45,275 nt of DNA from Nanobdellota archaeon. GTDB taxonomy: Archaea > Nanobdellota > Nanobdellia > SCGC-AAA011-G17 > GW2011-AR17. The position numbers and the translations under genes were made by a program. The notes under the pieces were generated by a model that was not told the origin of the DNA, did no database searches, and worked only from the letters and a program-made list of their open reading frames with translations. The DNA is taken from the NCBI GenBank assembly GCA_013329215.1, contig DUKS01000029.1:426-45700 (forward strand), given 5' to 3'. Below are positions 26,051 through 45,275 of the stretch, piece after piece (positions within the stretch are counted from its first letter, which is position 1; every line of letters starts with the position of its first letter).

Positions 26051-26143
26051 TTATAGTAAAAGTCTTTAATAATCGTACAAATAGTAAAGACTTTTACTGA
26101 TAGCAAAACCCATTATTTGCCTTGTAAAAGACTTTTACTATAA
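26051..26143. mobile_element. 93-bp MITE-like element with 17-bp terminal inverted repeats
   Basis: TTATAGTAAAAGTCTTT (26051-26067) and AAAGACTTTTACTATAA (26127-26143), plus an internal copy of the right end at 26085-26098. Confidence 0.55.
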
Positions 26144-42950: not shown

Positions 42951-44159
42951 CTATGCTGCCTTTGCAGTTATCTTGAGCTTGCCCTTGAAGATGCCTGCTT
43001 TTTTCTTTGGGGAAAATGCCCGCACCTTTATTTCTTTTCTCTCGCCGGGCTCAATTGCGATATTTGCGTCTTTCAGCGCAATCCATTCACCGTTAAAAGC
43101 TTCTATAAGGATATTGCTTTTATCACTCGCGGAAAAGCTTACTTTTACCATGTCAATGCCTGTGTTCCTTACATACAGCACGGACTCTTTGCTTTCCCCG
43201 GGGTTCAGCCTGCCAAAGCTTATGCTCTTTGTTTCAAGAACCGTTGCAATCCTGCTTACATACTCTATTTGCCTTGATTCTGTCGTGTTTGTTATTGAAT
43301 CAAACGCGGTTATTGTAAGGTTGTATGCCTTTCTTTCATCAGAAGGGGAAAACGCAAATCTGCCTGCAAACAAAACAGTTTCATTGCTTGCGTTTGCCCT
43401 GTTCATCATGATTTCCCTCCCGCCTATAAAGGCAGTAATGTTTGCAATGTCTTCAATGCCGTTTTCATCGCTGACAAGCGCTTCGATCCGCACTGTCTTG
43501 TTCCCCGCTATTACCTGTATGCCGTCTGCATCCATTTCGTCAGGCGTTATGTTTATGCTGGCGATTCTTGGCACCAGGTTCAGGGTCTCAAGCTCAAACT
43601 CAGCCTCATCTTTTTCCAAAGCAGTTTCAAACGCCCCTCCCCCCGGCGTTCCACCTTCTGCACTTTCTTCCCATCCCATTTCGCTTGTTCTTTCAAGGCT
43701 TTTGCCGTTGCCGTTGGCGCCGATTGAAGATGCATAGGAGAAAACATCGCTTTCATTCCCGTTTGTCAAATTCACAGTGCCTGCGCTGTTTGCCAATGAG
43801 ATTGAAACCTGCATTGCACTGAACCCGTCTGCCTCATCCCACACCCAGTCATTGTTTCCCCAGTATTTCTCAAACGAATCAGTGTCTGTGTCAGTTCCGT
43901 CTGTGAGCTCTTTTGCAATCACGAGATACTGCATTGGCCCCAGCGTGCCTTCCAGCTGCTTGTTGTTGGCAAGCCATTGGCTTAAGTCAATTGCTTCTTC
44001 TCCATGGTTGTAAACCTCAATCCATTCGCAGTCAGTGTCATCGCACTGGCTCGGGTTGTACATCACTTCAGTCAGGATTAGCCCGGCTGATGCAATCCTG
44101 CATGACGCGACCAATAACGATGCTGCCAGCATAAGCAGCCACGCCTTTTTGTGTCTCAT
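42951..44159 (-). CDS. Secreted lamin-tail-domain (LTD) plus Ig-like surface protein
   Basis: LILTEVMYNP...EWIEVYN...IDLSQW; GKSLER...GTPG. Confidence 0.85.
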   Translation of the reverse strand: MRHKKAWLLMLAASLLVASCRIASAGLILTEVMYNPSQCDDTDCEWIEVYNHGEEAIDLSQWLANNKQLEGTLGPMQYLVIAKELTDGTDTDTDSFEKYWGNNDWVWDEADGFSAMQVSISLANSAGTVNLTNGNESDVFSYASSIGANGNGKSLERTSEMGWEESAEGGTPGGGAFETALEKDEAEFELETLNLVPRIASINITPDEMDADGIQVIAGNKTVRIEALVSDENGIEDIANITAFIGGREIMMNRANASNETVLFAGRFAFSPSDERKAYNLTITAFDSITNTTESRQIEYVSRIATVLETKSISFGRLNPGESKESVLYVRNTGIDMVKVSFSASDKSNILIEAFNGEWIALKDANIAIEPGERKEIKVRAFSPKKKAGIFKGKLKITAKAA

Positions 44160-44343
44160 TTTGTATCCCTCCTTTTATGATTGCTTTTTCCATTTGCACT
44201 GTGTTCATAAACTTATCCTGAAAAAAACACGCAGTTCTTCACCGCTTTTGAAAATCTTAGGGTTTCATCCGGAGATTCTTTGCGTTTTGCTGGTTTTTAT
44301 CCGCATTTTTCCGGATTTGGTGGAAGCGGTTTTCCAAGCCCGT

Positions 44344-44395
44344 CGTCAAATCTCTGCAGAGATTTGACGGGGGTTCCAAAAACCTGCAGGTTTTT
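44344..44395. repeat. Two perfect palindromes (26 bp and 18 bp), both centred on CTGCAG
   Basis: CGTCAAATCTCTGCAGAGATTTGACG (44344-44369) and AAAAACCTGCAGGTTTTT (44378-44395); CCCGTCGTCAA repeated at 44339 and 44401. Confidence 0.8.
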
Positions 44396-44455
44396 AAGAA
44401 CCCGTCGTCAAGCCCGGCAGATAGGTTTTTAATCAGGCTGGGGCTCTTTTTTAAC

Positions 44456-44527
44456 ATGGTCAGAATCAATATCATCAATCCAAAACACCTTTCAGACCAG
44501 CACCTTTTGGCTGAGCACCTTGAGATA
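44456..44527 (+). pseudogene. N-terminal fragment of pyrimidine-dimer DNA glycosylase (T4 endonuclease V-like), interrupted
   Basis: MVRINIINPKHLSDQHLLAEHLEI resembles T4 DenV MTRINL...LADQHLMAEYREL; the frame hits TAG at 44540 inside the insert. Confidence 0.8.
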
Positions 44528-44741
44528 TGGATAATTCTGTAGGTTATATGACATTTTGAACAGAATTATCCATCAGACAATTCTGCCTATTTGTTATATA
44601 AGCCGCAGAATTGTCTATAGAGACTTTTGATTAACTTATTAGATATTGTCAAAAGTCTCTTAGAGAACTTTGGCATGCCATTATTTTGCATTTATAGGGG
44701 CTGCTTATATTGCAACCAATGGTTATTCAAAGTTCTCTATA
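44528..44741. mobile_element. 214-bp insertion made of four tandem inverted-repeat units (MITE-like stack)
   Basis: IR pairs 44527-40/44560-73 (14 bp), 44575-86/44605-16, 44619-30/44649-60 and 44661-72/44728-39 (12 bp each). Removing the insert restores the reading frame. Confidence 0.7.
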
Positions 44742-44744
44742 ATA

Positions 44745-45275
44745 ATGCTGGTTGACTATGCAAGAAAGCATCCGGGCGGTGAAATCCCGGCCAGGTACTG
44801 CCTTGGCAAAGGGCACATCAAATTCTTTAAGAACAAGGTGAAGTATCTGCAAAAACGGTTCGGCATGATCCAGAAAGAGATGAAAAAGCGGGGCTTTAGG
44901 CCGAAGGCACGGTTCAGCATAAAAGGCATAAGGCTTGTAAGCAAGGTGGGGGATATCGAGGCATACTTTGATGAAGCAAGGATAGGGGAGGTTCTGGAGA
45001 ACCTGATAGGCAATGCGACTAAATTTACACATTCAGGGAGCATAGTGCTAAACGCAAAAAAGAGGAAAAGAGATGTCCTTGTAAGCGTGAAGGATTCTGG
45101 TATGGGGATTGAAAAAAGCGGCCTGAAAAAGCTGTTTCATCCATTTTCGCAGATAGAGCCTTCTTATGCGCTTCACCATAAAGGTACGGGGCTTGGCCTG
45201 TCAATATGCCGCCTTCTGATAGGCATGCATTGCGGGAAGATATGGGTGGAATCAGCAGGTAGGGGAAAAGGTTCA
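44745..45275 (+). CDS. Open frame to window end: DenV-like C-terminal part fused to a histidine-kinase ATPase (HATPase_c) domain
   Basis: Hand translation gives IPARYCLGKGHIKFFKNKVKYLQKR...EMKKRGF, then N box VLENLIGNATKFT, G1 VKDSGMGI, F box LFHPF, G2 GTGLGLSIC. Confidence 0.75.
   Translation, partial: MLVDYARKHPGGEIPARYCLGKGHIKFFKNKVKYLQKRFGMIQKEMKKRGFRPKARFSIKGIRLVSKVGDIEAYFDEARIGEVLENLIGNATKFTHSGSIVLNAKKRKRDVLVSVKDSGMGIEKSGLKKLFHPFSQIEPSYALHHKGTGLGLSICRLLIGMHCGKIWVESAGRGKGS

Follow-up and report, generated by a model that had tools for sequence, protein, structure and literature searches.

A DenV-like repair gene in the 45,275-nt stretch of DNA analyzed here (the window), which belongs to a small groundwater archaeon, is interrupted after codon 24 by an insert that we interpret, with a probability of roughly 90%, as two MITEs of an IS630/Tc1-mariner-family IS lying side by side at one TA. 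We observe a family of related elements, TA dinucleotides at their flanks, an empty site in relatives of the host, and an autonomous IS with matching ends. The "split" repair gene would then be explained as transposon damage, an ordinary kind of event, and TA-duplicating MITEs with IS630-type ends are already well described. The genome of the window (G000; 1,415,786 nt in 67 contigs, 95% complete) was analyzed in a comparison set of 61 genomes in all that includes four further genomes of the same genus (G001–G004, with the G002 assembly 93% complete), and a wider set of 240 genomes of the order was searched for a parent of the second element. The features of the locus, as we read them, are as follows.

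44456..44527, forward strand: 5' fragment of the DenV-like (Pyr_excise) gene, codons 1–24; 20 of 24 residues identical to residues 1–24 of the orthologue; the frame that includes the insert stops at 44540–44542
44526..44527, no strand: left copy of the duplicated TA target; the orthologues have a single TA here (GAGATA/ATG..., the slash marking the insertion point) or none
44528..44617, no strand: element A, read as a MITE of 90 nt; hairpin units 1 (44527–44573) and 2 (44575–44616); its outer ends match both ends of an IS630-family element, subterminal sequence included
44618..44739, no strand: element B, read as a MITE of 122 nt; hairpin units 3 (44619–44660) and 4 (44661–44739, with a partly paired 55-nt loop); its outer 20-nt ends are 85% complementary
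44740..44741, no strand: right copy of the duplicated TA target, from flank reading and orthologue comparison
44742..44930, forward strand: middle part of the DenV-like gene, corresponding to residues 25–87 of the 137-aa orthologue; 46 of 63 residues identical, no gaps
44931..45275, forward strand: 3' part of a histidine-kinase gene (HATPase_c, PF02518, E 8.4e-21), fused in frame to the truncated DenV-like gene and continuing on contig C14

The interrupted gene and its insert

The ATG at 44456 opens the DenV-like frame, which contributes 24 residues up to 44527; a direct reading of the window places an interruption of exactly 214 nt at 44528–44741, and the frame that resumes at 44742 runs on to the end of the window. 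The N-terminal part matches profile positions 1–27 of Pyr_excise (PF03013) with 20 bits, below the 23-bit cut-off, and the C-terminal part matches positions 43–78 with 26.9 bits, above it. A full-length Pyr_excise domain in one open frame is absent from the locus, which holds two separate pieces instead, and these pieces are the sole Pyr_excise matches in G000. The family is present in 9 of the 61 related genomes (G000 counted), with intact genes of 137–140 aa in G001, G003, and G004; no member was found in G002, whose assembly is 93% complete. With the intact 137-aa orthologue of G003 as the reference for the fragment alignments, the N-terminal piece covers residues 1–24 and the C-terminal piece residues 25–87, and the proposed join between residues 24 and 25 is therefore exact to the residue. 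We take the break to lie one codon past the position of the catalytic glutamate of T4 endonuclease V.

The gene carries a second lesion downstream of the insert. Homology to the orthologues stops at residue 87 of 137, the equivalent of residues 88–137 (the last ~50 codons) being missing, and the adjoining kinase fragment is without its sensor and HisKA parts. This fragment overlaps contig C14 (reverse strand) by 23 nt, and on that contig the kinase ends and is followed by a response-regulator gene. In G001 and G003, the lamin-tail-domain gene upstream of DenV is syntenic and no kinase follows DenV. The DenV-like gene and the kinase, both dead, seem to have been joined by a deletion or rearrangement. 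The insert, for its part, brings in-frame stops, the frame ending 13 nt into it (44540–44542). Given these stops and the replacement of the last ~50 codons by the 3' part of the kinase, we regard the DenV-like gene as a pseudogene with two lesions that are independent of each other. The locus illustrates gene decay in progress, in that the sole DenV-type gene of the assembly is doubly damaged and its counterparts are intact in three sister species.

The insert is composed of four hairpins, each with arms that are 100% complementary: hairpin 1 (44527–44540 with 44560–44573; 14-nt arms, loop of 19 nt), hairpin 2 (44575–44586 with 44605–44616; 12-nt arms, loop of 18 nt), hairpin 3 (44619–44630 with 44649–44660; 12-nt arms, loop of 18 nt), and hairpin 4 (44661–44672 with 44728–44739; 12-nt arms, loop of 55 nt). 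Two longer, imperfect pairs bracket them, one around hairpins 1 and 2 (44526–44553 with 44592–44619; 28 nt, 79% complementary) and one around hairpins 3 and 4 (44616–44635 with 44722–44741; 20 nt, 85% complementary). The predicted RNA fold of 44515–44755 has an energy of −85.5 kcal/mol compared with −48.8 ± 4.4 for shuffled sequences (z −8.3), and the corresponding DNA fold has −47.3 compared with −18.8 ± 3.3 (z −8.7); 0 of 200 shuffles were as good in either case. The 55-nt loop of hairpin 4 is partly paired in both folds. G000 contains 76 perfect inverted repeats of at least 11 nt with loops of 3–70 nt, and the hairpins of the insert are four of these. An earlier note on this DNA had reported a 214-bp insert after 44527 with ATA at both edges, four hairpins with perfectly complementary arms, a fourth loop that is itself partly paired, and TTAT in the loops; its coordinates and arm sequences are as we find them, all four hairpins were recovered at full complementarity, the pairing within the fourth loop is borne out in both folds, and TTAT is present in all four loops.

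Two element families and their TA target

A search of G000 with the 214 nt resolves the insert into two abutting repeats, positions 1–92 and 89–214 recurring as separate blocks. Both repeats are small and non-coding. Full-length copies of A are present on contigs C40 (92% identity), C9 (91%), and C26 (78%), and unit 1 of A occurs alone on C34 (91%); full-length copies of B are present at C55:900 (96%) and on C20 (84%), with partial or expanded versions on C5, C4, C13, C63, and at C55:27623, for element copies at ~12 loci in the genome. The loops are conserved along with the arms (84–96% identity over whole elements) and are therefore not unique spacers. Their uniqueness, as claimed in the earlier note, holds within the array only, the same loops recurring in element copies elsewhere in G000, and the further copies of the arms that it proposed to look for were found in the form of whole A and B elements at other loci and in other species. 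Its suggestion of serial insertions of ~45-bp MITE-like elements at TA survives as to MITEs and as to TA, but the recurring units are the two-hairpin A and B rather than four hairpins of ~45 bp.

Element DNA was detected (E ≤ 0.001) in 6 of the 61 genomes, namely G000, G001–G004, and one other, which contributes a single weak 23-nt match among the 56 genomes outside the genus. The two-hairpin layout is kept in the relatives, for A in G001, G002, and G003 and for B in G004, with arm sequences that differ, and solo TA-flanked units of 34–47 bp also exist. A-type and B-type units are adjacent at C13 as well as in the window; no other composite of A and B was seen among the copies examined.

Flanks were read for 10 element copies in G000, with boundaries set individually. 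TA is present on both sides of all eight copies that are cleanly bounded and readable (8/8) and, as read by eye, of a ninth on C63; the right side of the tenth abuts a run of N. With the element removed, only the DenV copy falls deep within a long open frame; the remaining copies are intergenic or within a few codons of a frame end. The orthologues in G001, G003, and G004 preserve the empty site, reading GAGATA/ATG... or GAGATT/ATC..., with a single TA or none, and encoding ...EHLEI(I/M)ML..., and thus provide the empty-site alleles for which the earlier note had recommended a search. The continuous EHLEI-IMLVDYARKHP frame that it obtained by removing the insert is likewise supported and restores residues 1–24 plus 25–87 of the orthologues. 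Removal of 214 nt (the 212-nt pair plus one TA) restores both the frame and the orthologous length, whereas removal of 216 nt does not; because the frame is restored only when the elements are taken out together with one TA, we conclude that the TA target was duplicated over 2 bp. A and B abut directly between 44617 and 44618, with one TA fewer than expected from two separate insertions that each duplicate TA. Slippage in the TATATA run may have removed a TA at this junction, or else A and B arrived together as one composite.

Several copies vary in ways of their own. On C18 of G004 (L065, ~106–143), a minimal B-type element of 34 bp consists of two ends with ~6 nt between them and is flanked by TA, and on C62 of the same genome (L066, ~83–170), a minimal B-type hairpin with a 4-nt loop adjoins a second unit. 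At C9:16182–16409 of G000 (L030, 1501–1729), two oppositely oriented A-type composites are separated by 40 nt; the arm variants of the second, …TTCCCCC and …GGGGGA, are again complementary. In three B copies (C5:9394–9576, C4:15316–15486, and C63:5750–5875; L008, L063, and L064), a 42-nt insert interrupts the left arm of unit 4; it is made up of two small hairpins (GGGAC...GTCCC and GAGAATC...GATTCTC) and flanked by the 6-nt repeat GAGCAC. A similar hairpin module interrupts a CTGCAG-palindrome element (described in the last paragraph) in G002:C151 (L158), and the 42-nt module may be a third kind of tiny insert. Runs of N directly beside B-type copies are present in G000 at C13:2543–2855 and on C55 near 27703.

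An IS630-family IS with matching ends

A Pfam search of the genus genomes returned three DDE_3 (PF13358) matches in G002 and none in G000, G001, G003, or G004. Neither the Pfam model nor the G002 protein as query identified an IS630-type transposase in G000; this genome is 95% complete in 67 contigs, and its transposase may therefore be unassembled. On contig C128 of G002, a 338-aa ORF (L036, 1000–2016) scores 233.8 bits against NF033545, "IS630 family transposase" (cut-off 100), and 130.5 bits against PF13358. The surrounding IS (L036, 942–2034) is a 1,089-bp element with TA-TAGATAATTCTG at its left end (942–955) and CAGAATTATCTA-TA at its right end (2021–2034), and its 12-nt ends differ from the arms of hairpin 1, and from those of hairpin 2, by a single base in each case. 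The transposase with matching terminal inverted repeats that the earlier note proposed to seek is thus found in a genome of the same genus, with ends that correspond to the A-type arms.

Relatives of this transposase were collected from two sources. The genome_contigs search gave nine loci: five from MAGs labelled Nanoarchaeota or Woesearchaeota, including L069, which is the G002:C128 record itself, two labelled Methanosarcinales, one labelled Proteobacteria, and one short Woesearchaeota fragment. Metagenome contigs gave 391 relatives among 594 candidate stretches, and the best 80 of these 391 were used. Both ends were found in 71 of 86 full-length relatives (6 from genomes and 80 metagenomic) and, under a stricter end pattern, in 59 of the 80 metagenome loci. 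The end variants include TATAGATAATTCTG (26 loci); TATAGATAACTGC(A/G), that is ...AACTGC(A/G) (16 loci), which equals the arms in G001 and G003; ...TTCGG (3 loci), which equals the arms on C34 and in G002; TATAGACAATTCTG (2 loci), which equals unit 2 of the window; and TATGGAT (4 left ends and 1 right end), which equals unit 1. The resemblance is not confined to the outer repeat: over its first ~29 nt, A matches the left ends of the IS at L088, L093, and L101, over its last ~30 nt it matches IS right ends, and the loops of hairpins 1 and 2 correspond to subterminal stretches of IS ends. The clade with TATAGATAA... ends is drawn mainly from MAGs labelled Nanoarchaeota or Woesearchaeota and from metagenome contigs. 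An IS630-family clade with TA-TAGATAA ends can be named as a concrete parent for hairpin repeats ending in TATAG...CTATA; the terminal TATAG of Correia/NEMIS repeats may be a resemblance to the present elements.

Element B has TA-TAGA... in common with this IS clade, and self-complementarity over its outer 20 nt amounts to 85%. The five genus genomes, the best 80 metagenome loci, and the 240 order genomes were searched for a full-length IS bearing B-type ends (TATAGAGA[AC][CT]TTTG), and none was recovered; L154, with TATAGA(T/C)CTTTTCG, comes closest in its end sequence. The B-type end pattern TATAGAGAMYTTTG occurs in 43 of the 240 order genomes, and because its matches often lie near contig ends (40–55 nt away, as in G082, G216, and G165), an unassembled repeat is suggested. 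The IS630 fragments in G216 have A-type ends or none that are recognizable. B would have been moved by a related transposase.

Other candidates were set aside. A solo B-type end in G000 (C46:44465–44484) is not a full IS, since ordinary genes lie next to it, and a second IS630-type element in G002 (L037) is not the parent of A or B, as its ends differ (TA-TACTTAGTGACATAA type). An all-against-all comparison of the 2,002 ORFs of G000 yielded, as multi-copy candidates for a transposase, only nuclease-like, ArdC-like, and surface proteins; two of these groups we take to be a DUF1016-like nuclease and an ArdC-like protein. No DDE_Tnp_1 (PF01609) match was found in G000, and matches are present in G001, G002, and G004.

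Based on the correspondence of the ends, we hypothesize that each MITE is built from an IS left end, a short loop, and an inverted outer end, followed by a second outer end, a loop, and an IS right end, with the hairpin arms representing the 12–14-nt outer repeats that the transposase would bind. This end–loop–inverted-end layout, occurring twice, is the reason that each MITE reads as two hairpins. The arms would differ between units owing to descent from IS subfamilies with different end variants, and their match within a unit would reflect the need for one transposase to recognize the two ends of an IS. By analogy with the IS630 family, a transposase supplied in trans would bind the outer inverted repeats, cut the element out, and insert it at a TA, which would be duplicated. 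The pair in the window would have formed by two insertions in some order or by movement as one composite, and the elements were probably mobile in this lineage.

These proposals agree with what is described for better-characterized systems. The IS630/Tc1-mariner family inserts at TA only and duplicates it, and ISY100 is stated to need only its own inverted repeats in cis (sections of PMC2170065). Like L036, members of the ISY100/IS630 family have one transposase gene, short inverted-repeat ends, and TA flanks, whereas the elements of the window carry no transposase. IS630 is among the archaeal IS families listed in the available text of PMC13343696. The closest parallel is RUP, a MITE attributed to IS630-Spn1, which is likewise small and non-coding, with IS630-like inverted-repeat ends, insertion at TA, and stops in all frames; as portrayed in the accessible part of PMC2229807, however, RUP is a single 107-bp bacterial intergenic element, whereas the elements described here are archaeal, have two hairpins in 90 or 122 nt, also occur as solo units of 34–47 bp, and in one case lie inside a gene. 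Correia/NEMIS repeats of Neisseria have TA termini and target duplication, a length of ~107–155 bp, and stable stem–loop transcripts, and sometimes reside inside genes, and Correia and ERIC share TA ends (PMC2229807, in part). Correia/NEMIS repeats are bacterial, however, and the same portion of that review reports no matching IS ends as of its writing, whereas an IS of the parent type is found here for A. Among archaea, SM1–SM4 of Sulfolobus solfataricus are non-autonomous MITEs presumed to depend on IS transposases in trans for their movement and are present at 25–44 copies per genome (PMC10969869, in the part available); their host belongs to a different phylum from G000. The size of prokaryotic MITEs is quoted as 50–800 bp, and a census reports high MITE densities in DPANN genomes, one Woesearchaeal genome included (passages of PMC11602168). 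In a limited search of the literature, no description of this IS630 clade or of the two-hairpin layout was found.

Arm complementarity and alternative readings

In an alignment of nine A copies from three species (five from G000, three from G002, and one from G001; related and non-independent, with the structure taken from one aligned sequence), 97.4% of stem cells are paired and 12 of 26 pairs show compensatory changes, a result reached by 0 of 500 shuffles. Taken alone, these compensatory changes look like selection for the hairpin. Among the 71 IS with both ends, 808 of the 852 positions compared in the 12 nt following the TA (94.8%) carry the same base at the left and the right end, and positions 10, 12, and 13 of the ends vary between IS; the covariation of the arms is therefore mostly explained as already present between the ends of full-length IS and inherited by the MITEs. 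Stem position 15 (counting the first base of the flanking TA as 1) is paired in 17 of 18 cells, compared with agreement of the IS ends in 23 of 71, and this excess lends weak support to a hairpin maintained for itself. The layout of A is a full left end, a few nucleotides, an inverted outer repeat, one nucleotide, a second outer repeat, a few nucleotides, and a full right end, and B has the same build with a different sequence. This build may have arisen from two mini-elements in tandem or from insertion beside a resident end.

These observations bear on a different view of the array, in which the end–loop–end hairpin of ~45 bp is the true mobile or maintained unit, acting through extruded single-stranded DNA, fold-back copying, or palindrome correction, with arrays that grow beside resident ends and a two-hairpin layout that is functionally required. 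In its favor are the stem pairing and the excess at position 15 just described, the existence of solo TA-flanked units, the shared architecture of A and B despite their different sequences and its retention in G001–G004, and the clustering of units at C12, C9, and C13. Yet the near identity of IS ends makes a force at the level of the hairpin unnecessary, the additional evidence amounts to one stem position in related copies with a structure drawn from one of them, and cleavage by Tc1/mariner elements is reported to proceed without a hairpin intermediate (in the text available from PMC2170065). We therefore judge the full scheme a long shot, and its narrower component, that a 34–47-bp end–loop–end hairpin is a working mobile unit by itself, only slightly less improbable. 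The solo units of ~45 bp and 34 bp seem, by inference, too short for two double-stranded ends in one transposase complex, a point against the main reading. Were such a unit mobile, this archaeal IS630 clade would act on extruded hairpins or on ends borrowed from neighboring units, the arms would be kept complementary by fold-back copying, and the two-hairpin build of the unrelated families A and B would be required for movement. The natural series of mini-elements of 34, 45, 90, 122, and 212 nt would provide a set of substrates for determining the minimum length of an IS630-type transposon.

The remaining alternatives replace the DDE transposase, the DNA-level event, or the locus itself. Short palindromic units in mosaics are also typical of REP/BIME-like sequences moved by a tyrosine (HUH, Y1) transposase, and G000 does encode one Y1_Tnp protein (C17:17987–18331, 82.8 bits); however, the 3.3-kb loci that surround the Y1 genes in G000, G002, and G004 contain no element terminus, on C17 the closest one is 11.5 kb distant, and the TA duplications and the identity of the ends with those of IS630-family IS make this mechanism very improbable. 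An archaeal intron or small-RNA array within a gene that still works would account for the exact restoration of the frame on removal of the insert and for the very stable RNA fold. Against this, the same sequences are dispersed, TA-flanked, and mostly intergenic repeats, the predicted minimum-free-energy and centroid folds place the junctions at the base of hairpins 1 and 4 and show no bulge–helix–bulge there (3-nt bulges separated by a 4-bp helix), no Rfam family reaches its gathering score, and the gene also lacks its last 50 codons; we accordingly give an RNA-level element hardly any credence. The Rfam scan, which covered 43800–45275 at E values up to 10, returned chance-level matches of microRNA type only, none near a gathering score. 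The guide-RNA-like or cassette-like array with variable spacers that the earlier note offered as its second option is not supported, since the loops are conserved parts of the elements and recur elsewhere. A CRISPR-like array was also rejected, as the units are inverted repeats with differing arms rather than identical direct repeats and the "spacers" recur at other loci; annotators should not take such arrays for CRISPR-like or RNA-gene arrays. Lastly, repeats might have wrongly joined two gene halves in assembly, given that the locus lies 530 nt from a contig end and that no Logan contig spans the whole insert, the contigs being interrupted within 30 nt that the C55 copy also contains. The two flanks nevertheless follow on from each other as parts of a single gene, with order and frame preserved, and Logan contigs of three runs carry, with 0 mismatches, the left flank with A and unit 3 on one side and unit 4 with the right flank on the other, linking the window-specific loop variants to the gene flanks. 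These contigs cover 44200–44674 and 44645 or 44670 to 45275, the DenV/kinase junction included; the three runs may be the source sample, in which case they represent an independent assembler rather than independent DNA. A joint that skips the insert was not found in the Logan contigs of four runs, which says little, as contigs drop rare variants. On this evidence, an assembly artefact is a most implausible source of the insert, and we favor two MITEs of an IS630/Tc1-mariner-family IS.

Two further repeats lie in the window. At 26051–26143, a TA-flanked, two-unit hairpin element has different ends (TAGTAAAAGTC...); related hairpins are present on C53, C58, and C19 of G000, and its initial 8 nt (TATAGTAA) are shared with the right end of L037 in G002. 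Upstream of DenV, at 44340–44411, a 72-nt module with two perfect palindromes, each centered on CTGCAG, lies between the copies of a 10-nt direct repeat (CCGTCGTCAA). The orthologous upstream regions of G001 and G003 have one copy of the 10-mer CCGTCGTCAA and no 72-nt module; in G001 and G002, the module is present at positions that are not syntenic. An unrelated sediment run (X5) yielded a contig with a 74-nt stretch of 100% identity, and the CTGCAG module is probably another small mobile repeat.
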